NCBI GenBank assembly: GCA_048882505.1 | Contig: JBHLRO010000002.1 | Location: forward strand, 1-32,000 | DNA length: 32,000 nt | DNA from: Candidatus Thorarchaeota archaeon | GTDB lineage: Archaea; Asgardarchaeota; Heimdallarchaeia; Hodarchaeales; Hodarchaeaceae | Reading direction: 5' to 3' | Part shown: piece after piece, positions 5,965 through 22,915 of the stretch | Numbering within the stretch: position 1 is the first letter of the stretch | Layout of the letters: every line of letters begins with the position of its first letter | Notes under the pieces: model-generated | What the model saw: the letters and a program-made list of their open reading frames with translations, nothing else | Databases searched by the model: none | What the model was told of the DNA's origin: nothing | Position numbers and translations under genes: made by a program

Positions 5965-6070
5965 TGGGGACGGCGAGATTCGAACTCGCGACCTCTTGGT
6001 CCCGAACCAAGAATCATCTGGTCACCGCTCGTACACCAAGACAACAATAACCAAGCTAGACTACGTCCCC
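5965..6070 (-). tRNA. tRNA-Pro(CGG) with a 31-nt D-loop intron (21/22; 6017-6047)
   Basis: Acceptor GGGGACG/CGTCCCC, anticodon arm CTTGG-TTCGGGA-CCAAG, T arm GCGAG-TTCGAAT-CTCGC; BHB central helix TGGT/ACCA with bulges TA|T and GA|T. Confidence 0.93.
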
Positions 6071-6093
6071 TATAATTCAAAAAATCATGGGGA

Positions 6094-6501
6094 TTAAAGG
6101 TCTTCAAATCCTTCTTCAATTTCAGCTTCTTCATCAGGCACAACCCCCTCGGTGGGCTGAGGTTTGGGGGCAGCAAGGCGTTGTGCCACATATTCCCCAT
6201 ACTTTTCTAAGAGCCTTTCAATTTGATCATTATTCAAGCGCTCTCCAAGGACGCCACGTACATCAACTGGTGTTTTCGGATTAATATTTACCAATTGAAC
6301 TGCCAATATGCGAGGTATATCGAACTCCGTCATTAGCGCAGAGAGGATCTCCTCAGAATATGCGGCATCCTTAGACAATTTTTCTGCATGTTGGGCAGTT
6401 ACTCGTTGGACATAATTGATGCCTGCCTGTTCTCGAATCAGGAGAAGCTCGTGAACTCGACCTAGAGGGATAGGCTTTTCTTCTAAGATTTTTCGTACCA
6501 T
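6094..6501 (-). CDS. rpo4: RNA polymerase subunit Rpo4 (RpoF)
   Basis: ILEEKPIPL...V..LL, INYVQRVTAQHAEKLSK and LAVQLVNINPKT; conserved position downstream of rpl21e; acidic tail. Confidence 0.88.
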   Translation of the reverse strand: MVRKILEEKPIPLGRVHELLLIREQAGINYVQRVTAQHAEKLSKDAAYSEEILSALMTEFDIPRILAVQLVNINPKTPVDVRGVLGERLNNDQIERLLEKYGEYVAQRLAAPKPQPTEGVVPDEEAEIEEGFEDL

Positions 6502-6527
6502 TCAACTACATCCTATGATCAAATCAG

Positions 6528-6824
6528 CTAGGCCATCTGTGTCCGAAGGTGTTCTGGGCGAGCTATGATTTTCTTCTTTGCTTTACCATCAGTGACTTGA
6601 ACCACGTAACTTGCCCCCCGTTTTTCCAAGACAACTCCCGTTTTCCCATGGAAACGTCTATGGGGGCGGCCTTTCTGAACACTAGGTTCTATCACAATAT
6701 TGACTCGGGAATCTATCGCATATTCTCTAAGTGAGTGTGAAATTGGGGGTAGGCCACGATTGCGGGGATGCTTCGAAAAAACGCGTCGTGTCCGAAAATT
6801 GGTACCCTTAGATTTTCTGACCAT
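6528..6824 (-). CDS. rpl21e: Ribosomal protein eL21
   Basis: SKGTNFRTR, IEPSVQKGRPHRRFHGKTG and KKIIARPEHL. Confidence 0.97.
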   Translation of the reverse strand: MVRKSKGTNFRTRRVFSKHPRNRGLPPISHSLREYAIDSRVNIVIEPSVQKGRPHRRFHGKTGVVLEKRGASYVVQVTDGKAKKKIIARPEHLRTQMA

Positions 6825-6990
6825 TTTTAAAAACCTCTGGTGCCTTATAAGAGGAACAGAGAGCCTGAGGATGCTTTTATCTTGGAAGCGACGAGAGAAG
6901 CTATTTTTTTCTTTCTATTTGTTATTATTGTTGTTTCAGATTTTCTTGTCTGATTTGTTTATGAACACGGTATTAATCCAATGGCGTTAT

Positions 6991-8343
6991 TTAGAGAGAT
7001 GATTCCGGAGAAAATACCTTAATTACATCCAGATATTTCACTGTTGCTTGTGTCCCTACCAGACCTGCAAAATTCGGCTGGGTGCGTTCCTCATCACCGT
7101 TAATTAACTCTTTCACATAAAGCCCCCCTTCACAGACGATATGAATTGTCACATATTCGGTTGTAATTGATTCGATTTCAAAGCTAATTACCTTTCGCGT
7201 TCGAATCTTATCTGCACGCCGGTGAGAGACACGAACTGGCGTTCGTTGTTGGATAACAGAATTGGACAGATGCTTAGCTGCGGCATAAAGGCGGTCTTCA
7301 GTTACATTTCTTTCCGGTTCCAAAACCACAATTGCGCGATATCCTTTGGCAATGCGGCTGGACTGGGTTTTGAGTTCACGAACCTTTGTTCGCGTTGTAA
7401 GGCCATCAAATTCAACCTCGACTTTTCCCTGCGCGTTCTGGTCAATAGTGGCTTTCAGCTGAGCCAGATTGAGAGTACGTTTCTTTGGTTCAGAAATTTC
7501 AAGTGTAAACGGTCTGCCGTCTCCCAACATTCTAGCATCAATATCTTCTCGGCCTGCCCCATGAAACTTACTATCGACTCCCTGTGCTGCTGCAAGAACT
7601 GGTCCCGAGATAAACTCTTCAACTGATTCTTGGTACATTTTTCCTGTAGATCCACATCTCTCACATCCTTTACCTCTACATTCTCTACAAAACCACTTGG
7701 ATTGGGGAATTCCACGAGCCAGCTTGCGATAACGGCCTAGAATGAACAACGGGTTACTCTTGAGCTTCACCTCGTTTTTAACCAGGTCAAAAAGAATAAC
7801 AAGATCAGGGGCCTTAAAATCCACTTCGCTGTGTGGTAACTCAGATAGGATGCGTTTTCCGATTTCCCGATTGAATTCAGATTTAATGGATTCACCAAAC
7901 TCGATGCCAAATGTACTTCGAATATTATCCTCGCCATCTAAAATATCAGAAGGAAATCGGCATCCTACTAGGAATGTCCTAAATTCATACTCCGTCAACT
8001 GTGGAACCACATCTCGGACATGTCTTTCCAGAGTATCCTCCGATAATCGATCCTTACAGATTTCACAAATCGAATTGTCAAAGGAAATTTCCGGGTAGTA
8101 CCGTTGGACCGAAGTGTTCCCTACAGGAAAACCTTTTGCAAGCAATGAGGTCTTTGGGAGTTCTTTCGTAACCAATCGATAATTGTTTTCCCATTCCATT
8201 AGTAATGCGATCTTAAGGGCCTTCCCCCGCTCCATATTTGAAAGTCCCGATAACAGGTTGCCGAACTGTCTCCCAAGGCAGGAATTGCAGCAGTGAAAAG
8301 TTTCGATCAGCTGTTTGGCTTTCTGTATGATTTGCAACTCCAT
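6991..8343 (-). CDS. pus10: tRNA pseudouridine(54/55) synthase Pus10
   Basis: N-terminal CCNSCLGR...CEIC, THUMP region, GRYRKLARGIPQSKW, catalytic HGAGREDIDARMLG, QQRTPVRVSHRRAD and GGLYVKELINGD. Confidence 0.96.
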   Translation of the reverse strand: MELQIIQKAKQLIETFHCCNSCLGRQFGNLLSGLSNMERGKALKIALLMEWENNYRLVTKELPKTSLLAKGFPVGNTSVQRYYPEISFDNSICEICKDRLSEDTLERHVRDVVPQLTEYEFRTFLVGCRFPSDILDGEDNIRSTFGIEFGESIKSEFNREIGKRILSELPHSEVDFKAPDLVILFDLVKNEVKLKSNPLFILGRYRKLARGIPQSKWFCRECRGKGCERCGSTGKMYQESVEEFISGPVLAAAQGVDSKFHGAGREDIDARMLGDGRPFTLEISEPKKRTLNLAQLKATIDQNAQGKVEVEFDGLTTRTKVRELKTQSSRIAKGYRAIVVLEPERNVTEDRLYAAAKHLSNSVIQQRTPVRVSHRRADKIRTRKVISFEIESITTEYVTIHIVCEGGLYVKELINGDEERTQPNFAGLVGTQATVKYLDVIKVFSPESSL

Positions 8344-8507
8344 CGATAAAGACCACCAAGGTTATTAGGGCATCATGGCCCCCTTGATATGAAGTCTGTT
8401 AGTCATCAGATTGAGGGGAATGGGAGGTTATTTGACGATGCGAGATTTAATCAGGGTTTCGAAGCATTCGGTAGATCTGTTTTACGGCCCAGGAAGGCGT
8501 ATGAATC

Positions 8508-9056
8508 ATGTCCCGACATTTTATCATCCTCTCGAACACGGTAGATTGTAGAAAACCCCTCTCGTTGAATAATTTGACTGGATTTGGGCGGTTAGATGTT
8601 CTCTGTCGTTGTATTACAGCCACCTTCTTTCTTTCAAATGCTTTCCGCAGGGAGACTCAACTTAGCATCTTTTTCCGTTTGAACGAGCTGCTTCTTAACA
8701 TTAACGGAAAAAAGGCAGAGGGAATCAATCCTGATGAACGTAGCATAGCAGGTGTTTTGAAACGCGTCTTTAAAGGGAGAATCTCACGGGGAATTACTTT
8801 GGTTCCAGCTACCCTCCAAGAGATCTTGACTTTCCACCTCCCAACTGTCCTTGATGTTCACGGGAATAAAAATTTCACCGAGCTCACTCAGCAAGATGTC
8901 TTTCTCATTGGTGACCAAATTGGATTTACAGACACCGATAGACAAATGTTCTCGGATGTTAGCAAGGTGGAAAGTCTAACCATTGGATCACACGTCTACC
9001 TAAGTTCACAGACCATTACCATCCTCCACTATCTGCTCGACCAAATTCATAAGTAA
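8508..9056 (+). CDS. trmY: tRNA (pseudouridine(54)-N1)-methyltransferase, SPOUT
   Basis: GRLDVLCRCI...SNAFRR, INPDERSIAG, FLIGDQIGF and SLTIG...YLSSQTI; divergent from pus10. Confidence 0.9.
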   Translation: MSRHFIILSNTVDCRKPLSLNNLTGFGRLDVLCRCITATFFLSNAFRRETQLSIFFRLNELLLNINGKKAEGINPDERSIAGVLKRVFKGRISRGITLVPATLQEILTFHLPTVLDVHGNKNFTELTQQDVFLIGDQIGFTDTDRQMFSDVSKVESLTIGSHVYLSSQTITILHYLLDQIHK

Positions 9057-9208
9057 ATCAGAAGATGAAAAAAAGCCTCCTCGTTATTCGAGAAACCCGT
9101 AAACAAACTCACCAAGGATGTAAGAGTAGGAAGTCATTATAAAAAACGGAAGATAGATAAATCCTTGACATGCAGGAATGACTGACTGCCTCTAGGAGGC
9201 ATACAAAA

Positions 9209-10567
9209 GTGCTCGATTCGCTCAGCTCGTCTCTAAGAAAGGCCATTATGAAAATCCGAGGGTCTCCCCTCGTTGACGAAAAGGTTATCAATGAAGTTAT
9301 CGAGGATTTAGAGAATGCCCTACTTGCGGGCGATGTGAAACTCGATCTGGTATTAGATGTCACTGCACGAGTTAGAGAAAAGGCCCTCAAAGATGACATT
9401 CCCATGGGCGTTTCACGGACAAATTACACAATAAAAGTGTTATATGACGAACTTACCGCTCTTCTTGGGAAAAGGTACACCCCCTTAAGATTGAATCCTG
9501 ATGAAAGATCTATTCTGATGTTCATTGGTATCCAAGGGTCTGGAAAAACAACATCCATTGGAAAAGTAGCAAATTATTACAAAAAACGTGGGATGAAGGT
9601 AGGAGTTATTGGAGGAGACACATTCCGGCCTGGAGCACTTGCCCAGCTCCAACAATTACTGGCACCTATCAATGTGGAGGTTTACGGCGAAGAGAAGGAA
9701 AAAAAAGCCATTAAAGTTATTAAAAATGGCCTCAAGCACTTCGAGCCCCAAAAAACCATCAATCTTGTCTTAATTGATACCTCAGGCCGTCATAAAGAGG
9801 AAATTTCTCTTTTAAAAGAAATGGCCGATATCAGCAAGGTTGCCAAACCCACGGAGATCATTCTCGTAGTTGATGCCACCATTGGCCAGCAAGCTTGGTC
9901 TCAAGCGGATGCATTTAACCGTGCTACTCCGTTCGCTTCAATTATCCTATCCAAGATGGATGGTTCGGCAAAAGGTGGCGGAGCCATCTCGGCAGTCGCA
10001 ACGAGCGGCGCAAAAATCCGTTTCTACGGTGAAGGTGAAAAAATCGAAGACCTCGTAGAATTTAATCCAACACGATTTGTTGGTTCCTTGCTAGGAATGG
10101 GCGATATTGAGGGATTGGTAACCAGTGTTAATGAATTGCTCGATGCTGAGAGTACTGCGGAATTAACTCAGGCCTTTAAAAGAGGTAAAATAACACTCCG
10201 TCACTTCAAAATCCAAATGGAAAAGGCTTACAATCCCAGCGGGATCGGAAAGATGCTTTCCAAAATTCCACTCATCAGCGGAATTATGCCCCAGTCTCAA
10301 TTGGATGCTGAAGCGCAACAAGGGGTAAAACGGTTTGTTGCAATTTGTAATTCCATGACCGATGAAGAACTTGATGATGCCCGGATCATACGTGGGAGCC
10401 GCATCCAGCGAATTGCTCGCGGGTCTGGAACAACTCCCCAGGAAGTTAGGGAACTCTTGAAGCAGTTCAATATGATGACCAAGCAATTCAAGCGGATGCG
10501 CAAAATGAGGGGTCCCCGTGGTGCCCCAGGCAATATTCCTCCTGGAATGGAAGGCATGTTTGGCTAG
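9209..10567 (+). CDS. srp54: Signal recognition particle protein SRP54
   Basis: GIQGSGKTT, DTFRPGA, DTSGRH, SKMDGSAKGGGA and M-domain SMTDEEL...RIQRIARGSG; GTG start. Confidence 0.98.
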   Translation: MLDSLSSSLRKAIMKIRGSPLVDEKVINEVIEDLENALLAGDVKLDLVLDVTARVREKALKDDIPMGVSRTNYTIKVLYDELTALLGKRYTPLRLNPDERSILMFIGIQGSGKTTSIGKVANYYKKRGMKVGVIGGDTFRPGALAQLQQLLAPINVEVYGEEKEKKAIKVIKNGLKHFEPQKTINLVLIDTSGRHKEEISLLKEMADISKVAKPTEIILVVDATIGQQAWSQADAFNRATPFASIILSKMDGSAKGGGAISAVATSGAKIRFYGEGEKIEDLVEFNPTRFVGSLLGMGDIEGLVTSVNELLDAESTAELTQAFKRGKITLRHFKIQMEKAYNPSGIGKMLSKIPLISGIMPQSQLDAEAQQGVKRFVAICNSMTDEELDDARIIRGSRIQRIARGSGTTPQEVRELLKQFNMMTKQFKRMRKMRGPRGAPGNIPPGMEGMFG

Positions 10568-10593
10568 CCATTCGGTCTATTGGCGGGGAACTG

Positions 10594-10605
10594 TTTTTAT
10601 TTTTT
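10594..10605 (+). terminator. Oligo-T tract, candidate archaeal terminator of srp54
   Basis: TTTTTATTTTTT about 27 nt after the stop codon. Confidence 0.4.
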
Positions 10606-10669
10606 CTCAAAAATCCTTTTGATAATTATGTTGATATAGTCTGTTACTCATAATGAGTCATCTCGTGAC

Positions 10670-10829
10670 GCTGGGGTGGCTTAGCCTGGTATAGCACCTG
10701 GTTTGGTCGAGTTTGCGCCTATAGCGCGGGACTCATAATCTGAGATCTGTTCTCATACAATTTATAGGGCAATATATGCGCAACAGAGGAGAAATCCCGA
10801 AGTCGGGGGTTCAAATCCCCCTCCCAGCA
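10670..10829 (+). tRNA. Elongator tRNA-Met(CAT) with two introns: D-arm (about 22/23; 10693-10722, 30 nt) and 37/38 (10738-10793, 56 nt)
   Basis: Acceptor GCTGGGG/TCCCAGC (G1-C72, so not initiator), anticodon arm CGGGA-CTCATAA-TCCCG after splicing, T arm GGGGG-TTCAAAT-CCCCC. The D-intron boundary is ambiguous because ATAGC is repeated at both junctions. Confidence 0.9.
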
Positions 10830-10862
10830 CTCCACTGACACCATGATTCCTAGCTATGTCAT

Positions 10863-10965
10863 GCTCCGATAGTGTAGCTTGGCCCATCATTTAGGGCTCT
10901 CACCCCTAAGACTTCACTGATTTGATGTGAAGGAGGATACCCGGGTTCAAATCCCGGTCGGAGCA
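10863..10965 (+). tRNA. tRNA-Glu(CTC) with a 28-nt variable-loop intron (45/46; 10911-10938)
   Basis: GCTCCGA/TCGGAGC, TAGGG-CTCTCAC-CCCTA and CCGGG-TTCAAAT-CCCGG; BHB with CCTA/GAGG, bulges AG|A and AT|A, inner helix CTTCAC/GTGAAG. Confidence 0.92.
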
Positions 10966-11118
10966 TTCACTATTTATATTGATCTTGTCTGTTTATCCTC
11001 CTAGCCGCTTTTGAAATTGATAGAATACGAAGAAAATTAATATATCTGCGAAATTCAGTCCCAAAAGGAGATCTCCTCTGAAGTATTGCCTCCACTAATG
11101 GTGATTTGTTGAATATGA

Positions 11119-11267
11119 GCCCCGATGGTGTAGTTCGGTCTAGCATTGATGGCTGTCAAAGGCATCTTATCGAATATTGTCTTTTCGACGGCCTGCAGAT
11201 CCCATCCGACGCGGGTTCAAAAGATTTGAGTTTTTTACTCAATCTGAAACTCCCGCTCGGGGCGCCA
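11119..11267 (+). tRNA. tRNA-Asp(GTC) with two introns: 37/38 (11159-11200, 42 nt) and T-loop 59/60 (11222-11250, 29 nt); CCA encoded
   Basis: GCCCCGA/TCGGGGC-G-CCA; BHB CTGT/GCAG with AGGC/GCCT; second BHB TTCA/TGAA with bulges AA|A and AC|T. Confidence 0.94.
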
Positions 11268-11293
11268 ACATTTCTAACAGTAGAAGATATCCA

Positions 11294-11397
11294 GGGCGCA
11301 TAGCTCAGCTAGGTAGAGCGATGGGCTTTTAACCCATTGGTCGGGGGTTCAAAGCTGTGTCAACTTCGATTGCACAGTGAAAGTCCCTCTGCGCCCG
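11294..11397 (+). tRNA. tRNA-Lys(TTT) with a 30-nt T-loop intron (59/60; 11354-11383)
   Basis: GGGCGCA/TGCGCCC and ATGGG-CTTTTAA-CCCAT; BHB TTCA/TGAA, bulges AA|G and AG|T, inner helix CTGTG/CACAG. Confidence 0.94.
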
Positions 11398-11434
11398 TTT
11401 CTTTATGTCATGAGATCATGAGACAAAAACAATT

Positions 11435-12011
11435 GTGAATGAAATCAATCAACGGAACAAAATAGACAAGCCAAATCCAGATAACAATTGGGAGACGTTC
11501 ATTCGACTTCCTCTAGTAATGGGGGATCCTCTCCACGAAGAAAACTATACCCGAATTATGAATGGGATTCGATTTCGAATACGAGCGTTGATAACCTCGC
11601 TAAGGGAGAATAATTACATTAATTGGTGTTTTTTCCTAATTTATGGAAAGGGAAATGGGGTTCCAACAAGGGTAGACGATCGCAATATGTATTTTCATTT
11701 ACGCCCTAGTTTTGGTAAAAATCTAACAGAAACGGAGATTCAAAACCTACTACCTGATTAATGTCTAGTTCCTCTTGAGGATACATGGATTCGAAAAACA
11801 GATGTCATTCTCAGGGGGGGAAATTAGGGGAATAAACAAAGAACTCCTGAAGAATGATGATATAACCCTCGCCTGGAAAATCATTGGAGAGGCGTCTGAA
11901 TGGGTCTTGAGTATTTTAAATGTCTATGAGGATGACCATAACATTCCACGCCACCAGATAGCCCAGGTTCTACATTTCTTCCCAAATCTGCTACAAATGC
12001 CTATACAATAA
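11435..12011 (+). pseudogene. Disrupted gene, possibly lanthionine-dehydratase-C-terminal-like fold; in-frame stop plus frameshift
   Basis: ORFs 11435-11761 and 11775-12011 read as one protein across TAA 11759-11761 and a G7 run at 11814-11820. WCFFLIY...YFHLR and LHFFPNLL resemble that family's WFFIRY..HLR and HxxxNxL motifs. Confidence 0.6.
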
Positions 12012-12592
12012 TTGGTGTGACGGGATAAATGACGGGCAACATTTGTGCTGAAAAAAAGAGTGAACTATGGAGTTTTCACAAACTTTGGAGAAAAAAAGAA
12101 GCAGGAGGAGGGTTCTTTATTGTCCTTCATTGGCCAGTTGGTTCGTTTGGGGGCATCGGTCAGACCTCCTTTGGTCAATTAGATTACAGGATTACGTGAT
12201 TATTTCAACCGAGTATTGACCAGCAACAATTTAAATACCCAAATTTTCTTTGTCTCACGTAAGCTTGAGTATTTATTGAGTAAAGTACTGCAAAGCCCTG
12301 AGGCTTCAGTATATGGATGATCACTATCAGACAAAAAAGAACCAGTGTCTCGTGCCAGTTTCGAAAGGAGGATCAGAAAACAAAGACGAAGGATATGCGA
12401 TGAGGCGGAAAAATGAAGATTGATTTAGAAAACGCGCTCTCTCTCACCCCCCCGCGATCTATGAATGTGGAAAATCTAGACATAACTGTGTTTTTTTGAC
12501 AAATATCACAAGGTTGCTATCTGGCTCTACATATTCAAAACCATTTCTCATTCAATCAAAAAACCCTTTCGGCCTAGCTTCAAATTGCTGTT

Positions 12593-14119
12593 TCAACCTG
12601 TTAAGATCATAGGTGGATGCCAAGCAGAATTCCTCGAATCATACCAAGAAAATTTGATTCTTTGAGGATAGTGGTATGAAATTACCTGTCGAGTTTGACA
12701 ATTATACTCCGTTTCGAGGCTCTCAGCATCTTTCGAAGTCAAAAAAGCCCAGAGAAAAAGATGTTCCTCCGAGAAAAACATTCGAGTATAGGGCAGTCCA
12801 GTAATTACCTGATTTAGATCATTTAAAGAAGAGACGGATGATTTTATCTCGAATAAATAGGGGGAATAGTTGTAATGCAGTCTTGGTGAGTCAAAAGCGA
12901 GTGCACACACATTCTTATCATATAAAAATTTAAGCAGACCTCTTTCTCGCGCGGATTGTTTGATTATATCACGGTTTTGTCGTTTTGTCGGTATTGGATC
13001 TAGAGGTAGGTCTTCAAAATAATAGATCGCCCTGTGTTGGCAGAAGAACTGGATGAGAGCTAGCGGATCAGAAAACTGCGTGTAATGCCAGGTTTGATTG
13101 AATTCGGGCGTGATATAGAAATTATAGTCATGAGTAATGGAACCGGGAGGGGAACTATCTTGCCACCCCTTCCCCAGCGAATAGCGCGCTAATGAGAACG
13201 AAACCCGCTCAGTAAGGATTTCGTCCATTTCCAGACTAAGAACTCTGTGGATATGTTCATTATGTTCCATGAAACCCTTGAGATCCTCAAGAAAGGCCTC
13301 TGGAATGACCAAATATCCTGAATATTCGTTTTCTCGGTCTGGAACACGATGAATTCGGCTCGCACAAAGAGTTCGATCTTTTGAGTTTTGGAAATCAATG
13401 ATCCGCGTTAATGGCGTGTTTTCTGCTAGCTTAAGGTGAAAGTAGAGATATTTCAAACCAAAGGCTGGCGTATGAAACCACAAATTCCATTTCGACCCGA
13501 GTAATTTGAAAAAACTGGCCAGCTCCCGCATTGTTGGAAACGTGTGAGTATCTGTCGTGATCTGCTTCTTTAGTTGACGCGAACGTAATGAATGGATGCC
13601 CCGCTCTTTGATGGTCTGATAGACATTTTTTAAAGCAAATAATTGTGCTTCTGTAAGGTTTAACTCAATTCTAGTACAAATTAGTTGGAGCTGTTCCCAT
13701 AACTGGGATTCGAGGGGAATTTGGTTCTTAATAAGTAAAAAACCCCCTTCGGTCTGGGAATGTCGTTTGAACGGTTTAGCTAAATAGGCATAAAAACTCC
13801 TGCCATCATATTCAGCTAAAGAAAGCATAAGATTTGCAGTTTCGAAATAATCGATCGAAAACCACAGAAACGGATATTTAAGATATGTTCGTGCCTGATA
13901 ATACTGACGATTATAGTCTAGAAACCGCTTTGAAAGTCTCTCACGTTGAAAGTCCGCTTCCTCATAGTACTTCAAGGTCTCAAAGAACACGGTTAATAAT
14001 TTTTGCTCTTCAGAAGAATAGCGTTCGATATATGGTGGAAGCTGGTCTATGACCGTTTGGAGAAGCTTTTTGTGTGTCTTTATTAGCCAAACCACCTCAC
14101 TTCTCTCCGAAGTTTCCAA
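12593..14119 (-). CDS. Hypothetical 508-aa soluble protein, possibly with a degenerate wHTH / Lrp-like central region
   Basis: Long ORF with no hydrophobic spans; helical segment LTEAQLFALKNVYQ...RELASFFKLL followed by PAFGLKYLYF. The CDS is well supported; the product is a guess. Confidence 0.6.
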   Translation of the reverse strand: METSERSEVVWLIKTHKKLLQTVIDQLPPYIERYSSEEQKLLTVFFETLKYYEEADFQRERLSKRFLDYNRQYYQARTYLKYPFLWFSIDYFETANLMLSLAEYDGRSFYAYLAKPFKRHSQTEGGFLLIKNQIPLESQLWEQLQLICTRIELNLTEAQLFALKNVYQTIKERGIHSLRSRQLKKQITTDTHTFPTMRELASFFKLLGSKWNLWFHTPAFGLKYLYFHLKLAENTPLTRIIDFQNSKDRTLCASRIHRVPDRENEYSGYLVIPEAFLEDLKGFMEHNEHIHRVLSLEMDEILTERVSFSLARYSLGKGWQDSSPPGSITHDYNFYITPEFNQTWHYTQFSDPLALIQFFCQHRAIYYFEDLPLDPIPTKRQNRDIIKQSARERGLLKFLYDKNVCALAFDSPRLHYNYSPYLFEIKSSVSSLNDLNQVITGLPYTRMFFSEEHLFLWAFLTSKDAESLETEYNCQTRQVISYHYPQRIKFSWYDSRNSAWHPPMILTG

Positions 14120-14758
14120 ATATCACTAAGATTGAGCTGAAATAATAAATAGCTTGCTGTGACTTAATAAAGTCCTTTTAAAAACAGCGAAAATCTCTGA
14201 CTCATGATCGTAAGAACCATTATTTTAACACAAAGAATGTATGAATTCGGAACAGAAAGATTGAGATGCGACCAAAACGGTGATAATTTAAGGAGGGTGT
14301 AGAAGAAAACGCAAGGGGGAGCGTCTTCAAAATATCTTCTGATTTTCACATACATTAAAAAGACAGAGAAAACCTGACAAATAAGGGTGTAAAAGATATT
14401 GAGAAGGGGTCTCCGCAAGTTCGGAATTTTCTTCTTATTTCTCAATTTAATGAGTCTTTCACAATTTATGGGTAGAAACAATAATAAATAGTCGTATCGC
14501 CGAAGAGAGAGATTGGAGAAAGGTTAGGCCTAGGAATTACCAAGATCACAGTTTTTTCTGTCTCAAATGCAGAGGATTTTTTGTCTCAAAGGATGAAATA
14601 TCCTACTCGCCCCCGTTTTTCTGCACTTTTTTTTTATTGTCTCTTCACAGATTTTTGATTTTAAATGTAAGAGAATGCTTGGAATATTGCGCGAGAAGAC
14701 ATTAAATAAGCTAATAATATAACAGTTACAATTATAACAGCAGTAAGGCCTTAATGGT

Positions 14759-15439
14759 CTATTCAGTGGTACTATTAATGGCATCTCTTCCCTGTTTGAA
14801 AAGAAAGACCGAAATAATTAGCATAAACGTAAAAACAATCGCAATAATCATTAGAATAGGTATCAATGTGATCTCAGCTTCGTAGATCAAGACGTCTATG
14901 AATGGCAATGTTTCAAGTAAAGATTCGTCGTACACGATTATGCCCCCTACAGCTCCAACCAAAAGAATGACTCCAAATCCCACGAAAGTAGAACCTCCAT
15001 AAAGAACTTGGATGAGGGTTCTCGTTTCATATATGTCGCTATGGTTGACCGTTACGACAATGAACCGTAGAACTCCTGCTATGATAAATAATTGCATCCC
15101 TACAAGAGCTCCTATCACCTTAATCGTTAGAAGGTCATCTTGAAAGCTATTAGTTAACCCTAGTAATGCGACATTAATATCCAATGGATTAGGATTAATG
15201 ATCCCGGAAGCATCAATAAGTCCGAGGTATATTGCTGGCAGGACTCCAACTAGTCCAATTATTCCGCACACATGTGCCACAAAATCGAGTCGAGATACAA
15301 TATTTTTGCCAAAGCGACTTTCGAAATCAATAATCCCCCTTTTTTGGAAAAAATTGATCCAGAGTGCCATCAAAAGCGTGAGAGTGGTAACAAACCAAGC
15401 TCCAATGGGAAAATGGACAGCTGGAGGATGTAACGCCAA
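14759..15439 (-). CDS. DUF2231-like membrane protein
   Basis: N-terminal LHPPAVHFPIG motif and about 5 hydrophobic helices. Confidence 0.75.
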   Translation of the reverse strand: MALHPPAVHFPIGAWFVTTLTLLMALWINFFQKRGIIDFESRFGKNIVSRLDFVAHVCGIIGLVGVLPAIYLGLIDASGIINPNPLDINVALLGLTNSFQDDLLTIKVIGALVGMQLFIIAGVLRFIVVTVNHSDIYETRTLIQVLYGGSTFVGFGVILLVGAVGGIIVYDESLLETLPFIDVLIYEAEITLIPILMIIAIVFTFMLIISVFLFKQGRDAINSTTE

Positions 15440-15573
15440 TTCAGATTTAACTCCTATTTTTTTTTCGGAAATTCCGTCCAGAACAGGTGAGTACCTGACG
15501 CTTTATTTGGCTGCTCGTCCGATAAGAACATTGACTCTAATTTTGGTTCTTTCATTTGGTTAATATAAGAAAT

Positions 15574-16851
15574 CTACTCAGAAGCTGGCGTTTCCTGGGG
15601 ATGAGATCTGATGTTACCCAACAGAAGAATGAGGAGCGCAACCGCCGAAAACAGAGCACCAAATAAGAATGGTAAAGGAAAATCTATCTCATATAGTCGA
15701 CCTGCGATAATCCCCCCCGCGAGCCCTGCGAATCCCATACTAGTCTGGAGAAGCCCAATGCCTGTGCCCTTCAGGGCTGAAGGGAGTAAATCCACCGTAT
15801 ACGCCTTTTGGACGCCGTCTGTAGCAGCATAAAAGGCCCCATAAATACCAAAAGCTAGAATAAGAGCAAAAAGATGGGTGGTGGATGCAAAAATCAAGCA
15901 GGTAATAATGAAAAGGATTAATCCCAGACTGAAAACCTTTTTTCGTCCATAACGATCAGACCAGCCACCGAATGGGATGGAAAGTCCACTATACACCACA
16001 TTGAACCAAATAAAAAGCGCAAGCGTCATTGCCAGTTGATTAAAAGGAGTATCTGTGAAACCGATGGTACCAGCAAGAATAGTCTTTGTATGGAGAATAA
16101 ATAGAAGAATGGTAAAATTGGCGAGACCAAAGATGACTGAAATGAATAAAAACAGGTAATAGTCCCTAGGTAAGTTTTTGAGATTTTGCAAGAGACCTGT
16201 GCCGATTGGGGTCTTTTTCTCTCTACTGTAAATAGGAGTTGAAAGAAAAATAATAGGAACCACGGCAAATAATGAAATGAAGGAAGAAAGGATGATAATA
16301 AGCCGTAGGAGGGTTGTTTCTTCTTCTAAATACGAAAATAGCGTGATCACTATTCCTAAAGTAATCATGGAGCCGAGAATTGCCCCTGCAGTATCCATCA
16401 TCCGATGAAATCCGAAAGCTTTCCCACGTAACTGAAATGAAACACTGTCTGCAAGTAAAGAATCTCGTGGGGCCCCTCGAATTCCCTTTCCTAATCTTTC
16501 GATCGGTTTTAATATCGCGATCTGTTCCCATGATTGACTCAAACCGATACCTAACTTGGCAAAGAAAGGAATGCCATAACCGATTGCAATCAATTGGCGT
16601 CTTTTGCCCGTTTGATCCGCGAGATATCCCGAAATCACCTTAACGATATTTGCAACAGCATCTCCAAGTCCTCCAACAAACCCAATAACTAAACCCGATC
16701 CACCAAGTGCCGCGAGATAGAGGGGGAGGATAGGGGTCATCATTTCCCCTGAAACATCTGCCAGAAACGATATTAATCCCAACAGTACAACATTTCGAGT
16801 CAACCAGCTCGATCGTGTATCTGTATTGGGTGTAGACATGGTAAAAGCCAT
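15574..16851 (-). CDS. MFS transporter
   Basis: About 12 TM segments; SGYLADQTGKRR and GGWSDRYGRKK (motif A-like); ERLGKGIRGAPRD. Confidence 0.93.
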   Translation of the reverse strand: MAFTMSTPNTDTRSSWLTRNVVLLGLISFLADVSGEMMTPILPLYLAALGGSGLVIGFVGGLGDAVANIVKVISGYLADQTGKRRQLIAIGYGIPFFAKLGIGLSQSWEQIAILKPIERLGKGIRGAPRDSLLADSVSFQLRGKAFGFHRMMDTAGAILGSMITLGIVITLFSYLEEETTLLRLIIILSSFISLFAVVPIIFLSTPIYSREKKTPIGTGLLQNLKNLPRDYYLFLFISVIFGLANFTILLFILHTKTILAGTIGFTDTPFNQLAMTLALFIWFNVVYSGLSIPFGGWSDRYGRKKVFSLGLILFIITCLIFASTTHLFALILAFGIYGAFYAATDGVQKAYTVDLLPSALKGTGIGLLQTSMGFAGLAGGIIAGRLYEIDFPLPFLFGALFSAVALLILLLGNIRSHPQETPASE

Positions 16852-16982
16852 TTTTTACAGATTTACATAATTAGATAACTGAACTATACATTTTGACTAT
16901 CATTTTAAGGATCGATAGGATGACTTGGCCTGAACTATTAGTTGATTGGAATCCAAGTAAAGGAGTTACAAACCTATTGAAA

Positions 16983-17915
16983 ATGGTCATTGTTGGGCAG
17001 GAGTCGTTTGCGGGGAAGATAGCAGAAAATATTTCATCAGCGAGGTTTTTTCCTCTTGAAAAACGCTTGTTTCCTGATGGAGAGGTATGTCCACGATTAG
17101 TGATTTCCGATCCTAGTCAATTGGAAGGTACTCATGCCATTGTTGCATTGCAATTGGAATTGGGCCAATGTGTGAACCAATACTTAGTTTCTTTACTGTG
17201 GACACTCTATAACGTGAAGCGCTATCGACCAGCGATCCTCACATGCATCATGCCATATCATCTGTACTCTAGACAAGACACAGAATTCCGAGAGGGAGAA
17301 CCGTTCTCCAGTCGATATCTAAGCGAGGCTTTGGAAGCTGCCGGTATTGACAATTTTATGACGGTCAATTCTCACTCATATGGTAAGACGGATCTGGGAT
17401 ATTTTTTCCCTAAATCACGAGCGATTGGTTTGTCGGCTGTTTCAACCCTAGCCCGAGCGTTGAGAGAGCATCTAGACTCACCTGTGGATGTAATCTGCTT
17501 CTCACCCGATGAGGGCGCACTACAATTGGCCCAAGAGGCCGCTCAAGGTCTTGGGTCACCATATTATGGGGCCATTAAGAAAGAGCGAGACCGTGATACA
17601 GGAGTAATTACTCAGACATTCATGGGGGTTGGTATTCCCGTAGAAGGGCATCCAGTTGTGATTATAGATGATTTGGTAAGTTCAGGGGGAACCATGATGG
17701 GAGCCGCAGAACTTCTCAGAGAAAAGGGAGCAACAGATGTGTATTATCTTTATACACATCCTGTACATTCTTCAGAAAGATTCAAACGGATACTCGAATC
17801 CAAACCCCGTATGGTGTTTGCTTCCGATACCATTAAAACAAACTTTAATGGGATGACGGTTGTTAGTGTAATTCCCCTTCTTAGTGACGCAATTAAGCGC
17901 CTGCCAAGTGCCTAG
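16983..17915 (+). CDS. prs: Ribose-phosphate pyrophosphokinase
   Basis: FPDGE, PYHLYSRQD..F..GE, SPDEGA, KKER and IIDDLVSSGGTM; ATG at 16983 preferred over the track start at 16893. Confidence 0.93.
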   Translation: MVIVGQESFAGKIAENISSARFFPLEKRLFPDGEVCPRLVISDPSQLEGTHAIVALQLELGQCVNQYLVSLLWTLYNVKRYRPAILTCIMPYHLYSRQDTEFREGEPFSSRYLSEALEAAGIDNFMTVNSHSYGKTDLGYFFPKSRAIGLSAVSTLARALREHLDSPVDVICFSPDEGALQLAQEAAQGLGSPYYGAIKKERDRDTGVITQTFMGVGIPVEGHPVVIIDDLVSSGGTMMGAAELLREKGATDVYYLYTHPVHSSERFKRILESKPRMVFASDTIKTNFNGMTVVSVIPLLSDAIKRLPSA

Positions 17916-17922
17916 GAAGTAA

Positions 17923-18087
17923 TTAACTAGGTCGGTGTCTATCTATTAACTCACGAATGGCCGAACGGACGAATTCTGAGCGGTTAGGATATTTTCCTTT
18001 TCGAACGAGCTTTGCCATTTCATCGATATCTTTTTCGTCTATATAGATCGTTACTGTGCGGATGATATCTACCCCTGCTGGAAACAT
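17923..18087 (-). CDS. Ribbon-helix-helix (CopG-type) regulator, CdrS-like
   Basis: RTVTIYIDEKDIDEMAKLVRKGKYPNRSEFVRSAIRELI; ATG at 18087 preferred. Confidence 0.82.
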   Translation of the reverse strand: MFPAGVDIIRTVTIYIDEKDIDEMAKLVRKGKYPNRSEFVRSAIRELIDRHRPS

Positions 18088-18167
18088 AAAGGAATTTCCA
18101 GCATAAGATAGTTCTTCATAGACTAAAAAAAGCTTACCGCAAAATTTTGCATCCGGGACTGAAATCA

Positions 18168-19478
18168 ATGCAGCAGACCCAAGAACAGAAAAAAAAAGTA
18201 TCAGTGATGAATTATGGCTGTACTGCCAATCTCAGTATAGCTGAGGGAATGATGGGTATTTTACGGAACACTGGTTATACTATCACGTCATCAGTTGATG
18301 AGGCGGACACGGTGGTGGTAAACACCTGCATTGTAAAGCAAAACACGGAGCATCGAATGAAAAGTCTCCTATTGTCCTTGGCCGAAACAAAAGAGGTCGT
18401 TGTCACAGGCTGTCTGCCCGTAGCGATGCAGAGTTGGGTCGAACAACATGTCCCTGCCGCCAAAATTCTGTTTCCGGAAAACGCAGATCAGCTCCCTGGA
18501 TTGTTGGAGGACATACCACTTGTTAACACCTCTTGGGAAGATCCCGTCGACTGGGCCCGTCTTTACGATGCTCCACGAATCCGTTTCAATCCGGTGGTAG
18601 GTAATATTGAAATTAGCCGAGGGTGCCTCGGCCAATGCACATTTTGTATTGTCAAAAGCACAAAAGGGCATCTTCGGTCACGTAGCCCAGATAATATTCT
18701 CCATGAGATCAAAATCGCCCTTACAACGGGAGTTAAGGAGATACGGTTAACCTCGCAAGATGTGGGACCATATGGCTGGGACCTAAGGCCACGACAGGAT
18801 ATTACTTCATTATTGTGTTCAATTGCTACTCTTCCAGAGCAATTCTTTGTAAGACTCGGGATGATGACCCCTAAATCTGTGGCAAGATATATAGATCCAC
18901 TTATAGAGCAGCTAATGCAGGAAAAGATCTATACACATCTTCACCTTCCAATCCAATCAGGGGCCAACTCAATACTCCGTGCGATGCGTCGTCTGGAGAC
19001 CGCAAAATATTTCACCGATCTAGTTCACCACTTGAGAGAAGAAGTTCCTATGTTTACCCTAGCCACAGATGTAATCGTCGGTTTCCCCGGAGAATCCCCA
19101 CAAGATTATGCAGCCACCCGTAACCTACTTAAAGAAGTTCGACCCGCCATTGTTAACCTTTCTAAATACACAGATCGACCTGGAACATCTGCAGCCCAAA
19201 TGGGCAATAAAGTACCTTCCCATATCAAGGCAAAGCGAAGCCAAGAAATAGGAACCCTTATTCGTCAAATTACATACAGTGAACTGAAAAAATGGGTAGG
19301 ATGGGAAGGGACGATGTTAATCAATGAACGTGGAAAATATCCCGACCAGTTTGTCGGGCGAAATTCGTCCTATTTACCTGTGGTGCTTTCTGGGGGTAAT
19401 CTTAAGCTAGGAGATTTCATTCAGGTTCAAATAATAGATGCGGGGCCAACCTATCTCATGGGCGAAGAAAAACGTTAA
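18168..19478 (+). CDS. tRNA methylthiotransferase, MtaB/e-MtaB (ms2t6A37) type, radical SAM
   Basis: UPF0004 domain (YGCTAN, VNTCIVK, TGCLP), CLGQCTFC, TDVIVGFPGE and a C-terminal TRAM-like segment; ATG at 18168 preferred. Confidence 0.9.
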   Translation: MQQTQEQKKKVSVMNYGCTANLSIAEGMMGILRNTGYTITSSVDEADTVVVNTCIVKQNTEHRMKSLLLSLAETKEVVVTGCLPVAMQSWVEQHVPAAKILFPENADQLPGLLEDIPLVNTSWEDPVDWARLYDAPRIRFNPVVGNIEISRGCLGQCTFCIVKSTKGHLRSRSPDNILHEIKIALTTGVKEIRLTSQDVGPYGWDLRPRQDITSLLCSIATLPEQFFVRLGMMTPKSVARYIDPLIEQLMQEKIYTHLHLPIQSGANSILRAMRRLETAKYFTDLVHHLREEVPMFTLATDVIVGFPGESPQDYAATRNLLKEVRPAIVNLSKYTDRPGTSAAQMGNKVPSHIKAKRSQEIGTLIRQITYSELKKWVGWEGTMLINERGKYPDQFVGRNSSYLPVVLSGGNLKLGDFIQVQIIDAGPTYLMGEEKR

Positions 19479-19538
19479 ACCTTTTAATTTTCGGTGAATT
19501 CATCCTCTTAAGAATTAAAATCCCCTTAGAACGGATTA

Positions 19539-19546
19539 TTTAAATA
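19539..19546 (+). promoter_or_regulatory. Candidate TATA box for tRNA-Leu
   Basis: TTTAAATA starting 36 nt upstream of the mature tRNA 5' end. Confidence 0.55.
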
Positions 19547-19574
19547 GTTTGAAATGTAGAATGCCCCGTTTGAA

Positions 19575-19740
19575 GCGGGGGTAGCCAAGCCAGGTCAAAG
19601 GATATCAGGGCTAGATGGTAACTCTATGTTATCGCAAGGTGCCGACCAAAGGCGCTGGACTTAAGATCTGTTGGCTTGATGGCCATATATAGGTGATCCA
19701 GTCTTATAGAAGTCCGGGGGTTCAAATCCCCTCCCCCGCA
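19575..19740 (+). tRNA. tRNA-Leu(TAA) with two introns: D-loop 21/22 (19599-19649, 51 nt) and 37/38 (19666-19695, 30 nt)
   Basis: GCGGGGG/CCCCCGC, CTGGA-CTTAAGA-TCCAG after splicing, long variable arm; BHB GGTC/GACC (AA|A, AA|A) and CTTA/TAGG (AG|A, TG|A). Confidence 0.93.
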
Positions 19741-19760: not shown

Positions 19761-20549
19761 ATGTTGAAACATTGGAGAGGCCATGTCTTGCATAATCCAT
19801 ACGAGAAGAAGACTCTAGGAGACACTTTGTCGGTCGTATTAGTTGGGCCTTCAAAACCACAGAATTTAGGAAGCATTGCACGTGTTGCAATGAATTTTGG
19901 GATTTTGAATCTCATTCTCGTTGATCCTGCTTTGGATATCACGGATCAGGGTCATCTTTCAGAAATAATGGCCGTGGCAAGGCGAGCAGGAACGATCATC
20001 GATTCTGTCAGAATTTTTGATGATTTTCAAACAATAAGAGACAACTTCAGATTTTTAATTGGAACTACGGCCCGTACTGGTGGCGATTATAATCTACTGC
20101 GTGTAGCACTGCCACCAGAAGCGTTGCTATCCACTGATATTGGGAGTGAAAATCTGGCGGTTGTATTCGGTCGTGAACAGTACGGCCTTTCTAATAAAGA
20201 AATCGGCCTTTGCGACTTGGTAATCAGCATTCCAACAGAGAAAATTTACCCAGTCATGAATCTCTCTCACGCCGTGGCAATTATACTTTATTTTCTGTAC
20301 CAAAGATTTTGTAAATTGCCCCAAACCATGGATGATGGTCCTAAACACCGAGCGGCAAAATATCAAGAAAGACAGCAACTACTCGAATATTTCGAACAGG
20401 TAATTCAACGCTCAAAATATTATCCAGAAAAGCAACGGGTTGCGAAGCAAGCATTCTCAAACGTCCTCTCCCGAGGTTATGTTACTGGACGGGAGGTATC
20501 GACTCTGTGCGGCGTTTTGAAATGGATTGCCCTTAACCTGACAGACTAG
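19761..20549 (+). CDS. trmJ: tRNA C32/U32 2'-O-methyltransferase, TrmJ/TrmH SPOUT family
   Basis: PQNLGSIARVAMNFG, IGTTAR, VFGREQYGLSNKEI and VMNLSHAV. Confidence 0.88.
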   Translation: MLKHWRGHVLHNPYEKKTLGDTLSVVLVGPSKPQNLGSIARVAMNFGILNLILVDPALDITDQGHLSEIMAVARRAGTIIDSVRIFDDFQTIRDNFRFLIGTTARTGGDYNLLRVALPPEALLSTDIGSENLAVVFGREQYGLSNKEIGLCDLVISIPTEKIYPVMNLSHAVAIILYFLYQRFCKLPQTMDDGPKHRAAKYQERQQLLEYFEQVIQRSKYYPEKQRVAKQAFSNVLSRGYVTGREVSTLCGVLKWIALNLTD

Positions 20550-20622: not shown

Positions 20623-20693
20623 GCGCCGATAGTCTAGTGGTAGGACTCCAGTCTGCCACACTGGTGGCCCGGGTTCGAGTCCCGGTCGGCGCA
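20623..20693 (+). tRNA. tRNA-Gly(GCC), no intron
   Basis: GCGCCGA/TCGGCGC, CCAGT-CTGCCAC-ACTGG and CCGGG-TTCGAGT-CCCGG. Confidence 0.97.
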
Positions 20694-21781: not shown

Positions 21782-22915
21782 ATGAGTACTGAGACGGTTG
21801 AGACCTCCTCTGAAGCAATTCCTACTAACGTTGATTCACGCGCCAAACTTCGGGCGTTTATTCTACCTATCATCGCTGTAATATTGCTAGCGATCGTATT
21901 TTCCGTTATGACCTTGAATTTCTATCAGGGCATACAGCAAGCACCTCCTGACATTTCTCCCGTTCCAGAAAACCCTGATGATCCAGTAGGCGGCATTGCA
22001 CAAGGGGCACTCCTCAATATGCTCTTCTATGTGGGCGTGGCGTTCCTTGGAGGAATTCTGGTGTTGATCATAATCAGGAAGGGGCTAATCCAGCTCCTGG
22101 TCTACTTTTTTGCCGCGATGATGGGATTTTCCTGGTTCGTTTTTGGGTTGTTTTATGGCACTATTGTCCTGGTCGAGGGATTAGATCTAATTTGGTTGTG
22201 GCTTCCCCCCTTTATCCAAGCTGGAATTGAGGAATTTTTAGCATGGAAGATTCTGGTAGGAACACAAGAAATTTCTGTCATTGAGATACTAATTTACGCC
22301 TTCGCACTTCTTTTAGGGTTATTAGGTACGGTTTCATTCGGGATTCAGACGTTTGACCGAATCTGGGTGCGGAATGGGATGATGGTGTTTTTTGGAGCCA
22401 TGCTAGGTTCGATGCTTGCGATTCATCTTGGATTGCTTACTGTATTTCTCATCTTGATAGGATTGGCTGTCTATGATATCTACGCGGTGTTCCGTGGGCC
22501 CTTGAAAGGCATTATTGATCACGGACGTCAGACAGCTGCAGAGGTGGAAGAACAAATGCAATTCCTTGAAGAGAATGGTATCAAGTATGAGAAAGTGCCC
22601 CTGCTTCCTGCGTTGCCTGTATACTCCACTCCGCTTATAAACATTGGACTCGGAGATTTCGCTTTCTTTAGCATGCTTGCGAGCGCTGTGGTCGTTATCA
22701 GTAGTGGACTAGCCAACTTTTTTCCGCTTCTTGCGACCCTTGTGGGATTGTTTATTGGCGCTTATTATACTTTTAAGTTTTTAGAAGAAGAACGGGCCTT
22801 ACCTGGACTTCCTCTCCCTATATTCGGAGGCATGGGGTGTCTTATCCTAAGTGTTCTCGGCGGATTGATCCTGGGGGTGTTTACCTGGGACTCCATAATA
22901 GCATTATTCGCCTAA
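21782..22915 (+). CDS. Presenilin-family GxGD intramembrane aspartyl protease
   Basis: About 9 hydrophobic helices; YDIYAVF, IGLGDF and RALPGLP (PAL-like). Confidence 0.9.
   Translation: MSTETVETSSEAIPTNVDSRAKLRAFILPIIAVILLAIVFSVMTLNFYQGIQQAPPDISPVPENPDDPVGGIAQGALLNMLFYVGVAFLGGILVLIIIRKGLIQLLVYFFAAMMGFSWFVFGLFYGTIVLVEGLDLIWLWLPPFIQAGIEEFLAWKILVGTQEISVIEILIYAFALLLGLLGTVSFGIQTFDRIWVRNGMMVFFGAMLGSMLAIHLGLLTVFLILIGLAVYDIYAVFRGPLKGIIDHGRQTAAEVEEQMQFLEENGIKYEKVPLLPALPVYSTPLINIGLGDFAFFSMLASAVVVISSGLANFFPLLATLVGLFIGAYYTFKFLEEERALPGLPLPIFGGMGCLILSVLGGLILGVFTWDSIIALFA

Follow-up and report, generated by a model that had tools for sequence, protein, structure and literature searches.

Transfer RNA (tRNA) genes interrupted by several introns, many of them away from the canonical position 37/38, have already been described in the Asgard archaea. 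Kaneta et al. reported in 2018 that four Asgard genomes encode an (alpha-beta)2 splicing endonuclease (EndA) with an L1 loop, and suspected that they hold unidentified disrupted tRNA genes (PMC5829648). Valentin-Alvarado et al. then found in 2024 that 92-95% of tRNA genes bear introns, many of them non-canonical, in Atabeyarchaeia and Freyarchaeia (PMC11291895). A 2026 preprint covering 90 Asgard genomes (bioRxiv 10.64898/2026.10.13.758758) adds that D-arm introns are often missed by tRNAscan-SE, that introns were gained many times independently, often terminally and with no general route of arrival, and that several Heimdallarchaeia lineages carry fewer than 1 intron per gene, with a mean of 0.91 in its "other Asgard families". 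Here we describe nine introns of 28-56 nt in six of the seven tRNA genes found in a stretch of 32,000 nt (the window, from here on) of Candidatus Thorarchaeota archaeon (assembly GCA_048882505.1, contig JBHLRO010000002.1, positions 1 to 32,000, forward strand). The preliminary description of this DNA had named, as one possible refutation, that the host belongs to a lineage in which the pattern is already catalogued, and the reports of 2018, 2024 and 2026 on intron-rich Asgard tRNA genes place it in just such a lineage. Our case thus adds one more instance to a trait already published for the Asgard archaea and does not represent a new kind. The order Hodarchaeales is not named in the main text of the Asgard papers centred on Atabeyarchaeia and Jordiarchaeia.

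The source is classified in the Genome Taxonomy Database (GTDB) as Archaea; Asgardarchaeota; Heimdallarchaeia; Hodarchaeales; Hodarchaeaceae. SRP54, encoded just upstream of the tRNA-Met gene, has 95% identity to that of 'Ca. Heimdallarchaeota archaeon TM2S.58' and 74% to that of 'Ca. Hodarchaeum mangrovi FT_5_011', and the SRP54 of one congeneric genome (G005) is identical to that of H. mangrovi. Because of these identities the host is placed, by marker sequence, in the Hodarchaeales, so that the Asgard affiliation that had been left as an "if" is borne out. The genus comprises at least 21 other species genomes.

Six of the nine introns are non-canonical and three lie at 37/38; together they use five sites (21/22, 22/23, 37/38, 45/46 and 59/60). 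Both the counts and the positions agree exactly with those first proposed from the sequence (Table 1). The interrupted genes are 103-166 nt long and their spliced products 74-75 nt, or 85 nt for Leu. All six spliced sequences fold into regular cloverleaves with the expected anticodons in ARAGORN, and the conserved positions are restored. Introns were fixed by length, by bulge-helix-bulge (BHB) geometry and by orthologues, the BHB never being the sole criterion. In the geometry used, exon bases -6 to -3 before the cut pair with intron bases -6 to -3 (helix H); exon bases -2 and -1 with the first intron base make one bulge, and intron bases -2 and -1 with the first 3' exon base make the other. 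Of the two further helices, h is the outer one, between the exons, and h' lies inside the intron. A BHB alone is weak evidence, since a scan for strict motifs also returned three matches across the stems of the intron-free Gly gene, all of them false. The use of ARAGORN on all single deletions as a validator was abandoned as too permissive, with hundreds of matches per gene.

Comparison with uninterrupted genes settles two of the boundaries. The Pro 21/22 boundary is fixed because the intron-free paralogue Pro-UGG (G000:C11:64-140, G000 being the host assembly) aligns across the gap in Pro-CGG, and the 45/46 boundary of Glu because intron-free orthologues of 75 nt in genome G023 fix its variable loop at 4 nt. 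Direct repeats of 6 nt (TATAGC and CAAAGG) flank the D-arm introns of Met (10693-10722) and Leu (19599-19649), leaving their boundaries ambiguous. For Met intron 1 the repeat gives seven equivalent registers, from 19/20 to 25/26; register 25/26 yields an H of 4 bp with an h' of 0, and one Met orthologue, whose alignment was checked by hand, has an H of 4 bp at 22/23. The canonical introns of Met (10738) and Leu (19666) both begin with ATCTG.

All nine junctions score above shuffled introns (2000 shuffles each, p = 0.0005-0.046), and when other start positions for an intron of the same length were tried in the same gene, only 0-3 of 54-116 scored as well as the chosen junction. The earlier statement that a BHB can be reconstructed at every intron therefore holds in that each motif beats its shuffles, and falls short in that only three of the nine (both Asp introns and the Lys intron) form a strict hBHBh' motif, the remaining six being relaxed.

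Comparison with relatives gives a second line of evidence. In orthologues from up to 17 congeneric genomes the exons are nearly invariant, while the introns diverge and are exactly present or absent, and the junction helices are maintained by compensating changes both at position 57 of the 59/60 introns and at Leu 21/22. For the 59/60 introns (rows for Met, Glu, Lys and Leu), 18 cases have A57 in the exon opposite U(-6) in the intron and 6 have G57 opposite C(-6), the latter in Met and Leu only. Seven cases depart from this pattern: five A:G, one G:U wobble, and one A:A which belongs to the Asp rows, mis-registered by one base in this comparison. The H helix of Leu 21/22 has 3-4 bp in 15 of 17 orthologues and 2 bp in the other two, and in one orthologue it carries a double change from U20:A to C20:G. 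Moreover, G18-G19 pairs with the 3' end of this Leu intron in 17 of 17, the partner being CC in nearly all of them. The D-loop and T-loop introns pair with the nucleotides that build the tRNA elbow (G18-G19 and U54-R57).

The Leu 21/22 intron also contains the octamer GGGCTAGA (19608-19615), invariant in 16 of 16 congeneric orthologues, with the remainder of the intron varying in sequence and length. Its GGCTA is complementary to exon bases 8-12 (UAGCC). The octamer is not a repeated element of the genome, which holds 6 matches against about 16 expected by chance.

The host genome encodes two EndA paralogues, located in the regions G000:C18:41332-41586 and G000:C18:72299-72559, and one RtcB ligase. 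EndA alpha (182 aa) matches the Aeropyrum pernix alpha subunit (3p1z_B) over its full length (E 1e-41), with the catalytic Tyr, His and Lys region conserved and with a lysine aligned to K44 of the Crenarchaea-specific loop (CSL, or L1), the residue that confers a broad substrate range (PMC5829648). The second paralogue (213 aa) is divergent and shows by eye no obvious counterpart of the catalytic His; its best match is an EndA-like protein of M. kandleri, and the A. pernix beta subunit was matched weakly (E 0.006), which fits a putative structural beta subunit. A Crenarchaeota-like two-subunit EndA together with RtcB is therefore encoded, as judged from the genes, and is predicted to be able to cut relaxed motifs.

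We consider it very probable that the six are working tRNA genes of a Hodarchaeales archaeon whose BHB introns are removed by protein splicing enzymes. This reading starts from what is directly observed: the anatomy of the genes, the motifs, their conservation and the presence of the enzymes. The precursor would fold so that the exon and intron segments of helix H (positions -6 to -3 of each) come together, giving 4 bp between two 3-nt bulges. The 59/60 and 37/38 introns would take the neighbouring tRNA stem as outer helix, which may explain motifs that are strict or close to it. The introns of the D-loop and the variable loop have no outer exon helix (the HBh' form) and would need the broad-specificity loop of EndA alpha. 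An (alpha-beta)2 EndA would cut both bulges and RtcB would then join the exons. Because G18-G19 and U54-R57 are taken up by pairing with the D-loop and T-loop introns, these introns would have to leave before the elbow forms.

Several points weigh against this reading. Beyond the relaxed state of six of the nine motifs, H reaches only 3 of 4 bp in both Met introns and in the Glu intron, the outer helix h has 0-1 bp in Pro, Met 22/23, Glu and Leu 21/22, and h' has a single pair in Leu 37/38. The registers of Met 22/23 and Leu 21/22 were picked by the best BHB fit over the 6-nt repeat, and this choice is partly circular. The 2026 preprint also warns that some D-arm insertions may have imprecise boundaries or be non-introns (bioRxiv 10.64898/2026.10.13.758758). 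Finally, the cutting and joining of the precursors is inferred from DNA, and the tRNA census of the genome is incomplete, the Tyr and Lys-CUU genes not being found.

In this sense, it could be argued that the strict inserts are true introns and that some of the relaxed ones (Pro 21/22, Met 22/23, Glu 45/46 and Leu 21/22) are not EndA introns, being either retained as expansions or removed by another route. Their outer exon helix of 0-1 bp, the H of 3/4 in two of the four and the preprint's caveat on the D-arm would agree with such an origin, as would the outcome of RNAalifold on the Leu 21/22 region, where no covarying structure and no useful consensus emerged from introns too variable in length to align well. 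However, an essential single-copy tRNA would have its elbow destroyed by an insert of 30-51 nt left in its D-loop or variable loop, the inserts are exactly absent from orthologues or paralogues, and the pairing of G18-G19 with the 3' end of the Leu intron is kept in all 17 orthologues. In addition, HBh' introns of the D-loop are cut in vitro by an A. pernix-type EndA with the L1 loop (PMC5829648). We regard this explanation as improbable.

The census, a structure-seeded search of the whole assembly with three further genes resolved by hand, yielded 44 tRNA genes and about 47 introns, or 1.07 per gene; 30 of the genes (68%) are interrupted and 15 carry at least two introns. Canonical introns number 20 and non-canonical ones 27 (57%). 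Of the latter, the D-arm holds 13, the T-loop 9 and the variable region 4, and the last one lies at 7/8 or 8/9. The window is typical of its genome: it holds 1.29 introns per gene against about 1.07 genome-wide, and to call it "intron-saturated", as the preliminary description did, was an overstatement.

The census also bears on the idea that the genes are decaying pseudogenes, with functional copies in another part of the genome or in DNA that was not assembled. At a completeness of 94.6%, and with tRNA-Tyr and Lys-CUU not found, some tRNA genes must be absent from the assembly or have escaped the finder, which leaves some room for hidden copies. On the other hand, the search detected a single gene for each of the Pro, Glu, Asp, Lys and Leu anticodons, and the three genes with CAU, the initiator among them, differ in sequence; the intact same-anticodon copies that had been named as a possible refutation did not appear. 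Besides, the exons are near-invariant across congeners while the introns diverge, and about two thirds of the tRNA genes of the genome are interrupted in the same way. Decay of all these genes seems very unlikely to us.

Nor do the inserts look like assembly artefacts or miniature mobile elements lodged in tRNA genes, in spite of the 6-nt direct repeats flanking the Met 22/23 and Leu 21/22 inserts. The same intron-bearing DNA occurs in an independent metagenome-assembled genome (G016, 95-98% identical) and in contigs of several other studies. In an all-against-all comparison of 42 introns no families were found, the top pair scoring 20 against maxima of 18-25 for shuffled introns. The inserts measure only 28-56 nt and show no sign of a multi-copy state; with no similarity among the introns and junction repeats of just 0-6 nt, they do not fit the profile of miniature transposons (multiple copies, terminal inverted repeats, target-site duplication). 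This possibility is hardly credible. No RNA run was listed among those containing the locus. Apparent joints in four runs (DNA contigs only) were discarded as cross-mapping at 85% likeness; the DNA itself was confirmed.

Working genes with spliced introns thus being our preferred reading, the orthologues also tell how intron sets vary within the genus. The number of introns per gene ranges over 2-4 in Met, 1-3 in Glu, 1-2 in Asp, 1-2 in Lys and 2-4 in Leu, and intron-free Glu and Lys genes occur in the sister family. Met orthologues measure 160-221 nt, with intron sites at about 14/15, 22/23, 37/38 and 59/60, and the 37/38 intron is present in 13 of 13. The Glu-CUC intron at 45/46 is shared by four genomes (G000, G016, G004 and G010). 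In 11 other congeners 37/38 replaces 45/46, accompanied by 59/60 in 10 of them (all but G012); a D-loop intron is added in two genomes, and one sister-family genome has no intron in this gene. The Asp 59/60 intron is missing from G005 and G010. Lys-UUU carries the 59/60 intron in three genomes, both sites in one (G004) and 37/38 only in the remaining congeners. At the other extreme, the Leu 21/22 intron is shared by all 17 orthologues and reaches beyond the family to another one of the order; these genes have up to four introns in total. An SRP54 tree of 14 genomes did not settle the deep branches.

Compared with its closest published relatives the host shares most features: introns of BHB type in the D-arm, at 37/38, in the T-arm and in the variable region, several per gene, gained at the species level and missed by annotators, together with an (alpha-beta)2 EndA with the L1 loop, predicted in the case of the host. 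The difference is one of load. Atabeyarchaeia and Jordiarchaeia are given about 2.2 introns per gene with more than 90% of genes interrupted, whereas the host has about 1.07 per gene, with 68% of its genes interrupted. It thus falls outside the heavily interrupted Asgard phenotype (about 2 or more per gene in more than 90% of genes) and nearer the 0.91 mean given in the 2026 preprint for other Asgard families. The load of 1.07 per gene, the lack of intron families and the species-level turnover fit the picture drawn there (10.64898/2026.10.13.758758).

Outside the Asgard archaea, the work on Thermoproteales, as cited in later papers (Sugahara 2008; Fujishima 2010), describes, as in our host, many non-canonical introns, up to several per gene, relaxed BHBs and a heterotetrameric EndA (predicted in the host) with the Crenarchaea-specific loop. 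In Thermoproteales, related introns recur in different genes and are read as the product of transposition, while here no pair rises above shuffled controls. With respect to the A. pernix (alpha-beta)2 endonuclease (PDB 3p1z, 3ajv), the host alpha subunit is alike end to end, whereas the beta-like paralogue, predicted from the genes, is very divergent. The eukaryotic endonuclease TSEN has a homologous catalytic domain (Sen34, E 4e-10; Sen2, E 7e-5), and its 37/38 site is also used in the host. Whereas TSEN measures from the mature domain to its sites, which are nearly always at 37/38, the window uses five sites, each apparently defined by a local BHB, and six of nine introns lie away from 37/38; any connection with how the TSEN ruler of eukaryotes arose is speculation. 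Finally, the red alga Cyanidioschyzon merolae also has several non-canonical introns with BHB-like junctions, but in a eukaryotic nucleus and alongside permuted genes (PMC3728597). No permuted tRNA gene turned up in the host, where no systematic search for them was made.

As had been anticipated, annotation tools miss or mis-call most of these genes. The default mode of ARAGORN found one tRNA in the window, Gly-GCC. Its intron mode called Pro as Thr and Met as Ala, and missed Asp, Lys and Leu. The Rfam tRNA model missed Asp and Leu and found the other five genes of the window, but in three of these the alignment was truncated or held large insertions. Automated annotation would make the host genome look short of several tRNAs, and base-exact coordinates are now given for six tRNA genes that such tools commonly miss or mislabel.

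Other tRNA genes of the assembly deserve mention. A tRNA-Ser(UGA) gene (G000:C16:7959-8130, minus strand) has an intron of about 45 nt right after the 5' acceptor strand (7/8 or 8/9), in addition to D-arm and canonical introns; it went unreported by Rfam, and ARAGORN in intron mode called the locus tRNA-Tyr. The initiator tRNA gene (G000:C11:13193-13297, plus strand) contains a canonical intron of 26 nt in which GAUGA ... CUGA may form a K-turn, and the T-stem of this tRNA seems to hold one extra base. The tRNA-Trp gene (G000:C16:32765-32962, minus strand) has three introns. The canonical one (62 nt) carries a C-box (AUGAUGA) and a D-box (CUGA), like the known guide RNA of the Trp intron in Haloferax. 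The 3' part of this gene recurs, nearly identical, at a distance of about 22 kb on the same strand, and immediately upstream of the gene there is a 5' fragment; these partial copies may be the trace of an integrated element whose attachment site was the tRNA. A partial tRNA-Trp copy was also one lead in the search for tRNA-Tyr and Lys-CUU, which were not found in the assembly by any method used, and whose genes may be unassembled, split, permuted or very heavily interrupted.

In the window, the tRNA genes are interspersed with genes for tRNA modification, among them a PF04013 methyltransferase which we take to be TrmY-like. A 3' CCA is encoded by the Asp gene (11265-11267) and by the initiator gene on contig C11, and not by the other six tRNA genes of the window.

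Table 1. Coordinates of the tRNA genes, their introns and other features. Positions are those of the window unless a contig of the host assembly is named; H, h and h' are helix lengths in base pairs and p is the result of the shuffle control.
Feature	Position	Strand	Remarks
tRNA-Pro(CGG) gene	5965..6070	-	106 nt; mature 75 nt
Pro intron, 21/22 (D-loop)	6017..6047	-	31 nt; relaxed HBh'; H4, h1, h'6; p 0.0075
tRNA-Met(CAU) gene, elongator Met or Ile2	10670..10829	+	160 nt; mature 74 nt
Met intron 1, 22/23 (D-stem 3' side)	10693..10722	+	30 nt; H3, h1, h'3; p 0.046
Met intron 2, canonical 37/38	10738..10793	+	56 nt; H3, h5, h'4; p 0.0055
tRNA-Glu(CUC) gene	10863..10965	+	103 nt; mature 75 nt
Glu intron, 45/46 (variable loop)	10911..10938	+	28 nt; relaxed HBh'; H3, h0, h'6; p 0.019
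tRNA-Asp(GUC) gene	11119..11264	+	146 nt; mature 75 nt
Asp intron 1, canonical 37/38	11159..11200	+	42 nt; strict hBHBh'; H4, h5, h'4; p 0.001
Asp intron 2, 59/60 (T-loop)	11222..11250	+	29 nt; strict hBHBh'; H4, h5, h'4; p 0.0005
tRNA-Lys(UUU) gene	11294..11397	+	104 nt; mature 74 nt
Lys intron, 59/60 (T-loop)	11354..11383	+	30 nt; strict hBHBh'; H4, h5, h'6; p 0.001
tRNA-Leu(UAA) gene, class II	19575..19740	+	166 nt; mature 85 nt
Leu intron 1, 21/22 (D-loop)	19599..19649	+	51 nt; relaxed HBh'; H4, h0, h'2; p 0.0055
Leu intron 2, canonical 37/38	19666..19695	+	30 nt; H4, h6, h'1; p 0.024
tRNA-Gly(GCC) gene, seventh, intron-free	20623..20693	+	ARAGORN, Rfam
Pus10 (Psi54/55 synthase)	6991-8343	-	
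PF04013 RNA methyltransferase	8508-9056	+	
508-aa open frame	12593-14119	-	no Pfam match
MiaB/MtaB-type radical-SAM methylthiotransferase	18147-19478	+	
SpoU-family methylase	19761-20549	+	
Presenilin-family membrane protease homologue	21782-22915	+	PF01080, E 3e-10
Partial tRNA-Trp copies	near C16:10640-10760 and C16:33075-33140	-	

The Hodarchaeales are the order usually placed nearest to the eukaryotes. With this study they join the Asgard lineages rich in non-canonical tRNA introns, their load being moderate (about 1 per gene). Intron sets differ between congeneric species, which fits the repeated recent gains already published without changing that picture. A bolder proposal, which we hold to be possible though rather unlikely, is that in the genus Hodarchaeum a given tRNA gene exchanges one intron position for another on the time scale of species, and that some of these introns, in view of their pairing with the elbow nucleotides and of the invariant octamer in the old Leu 21/22 intron, may order folding or modification beyond being tolerated. 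If true, the genus would be a natural system for catching the gain and loss of BHB introns in the closest known relatives of eukaryotes.

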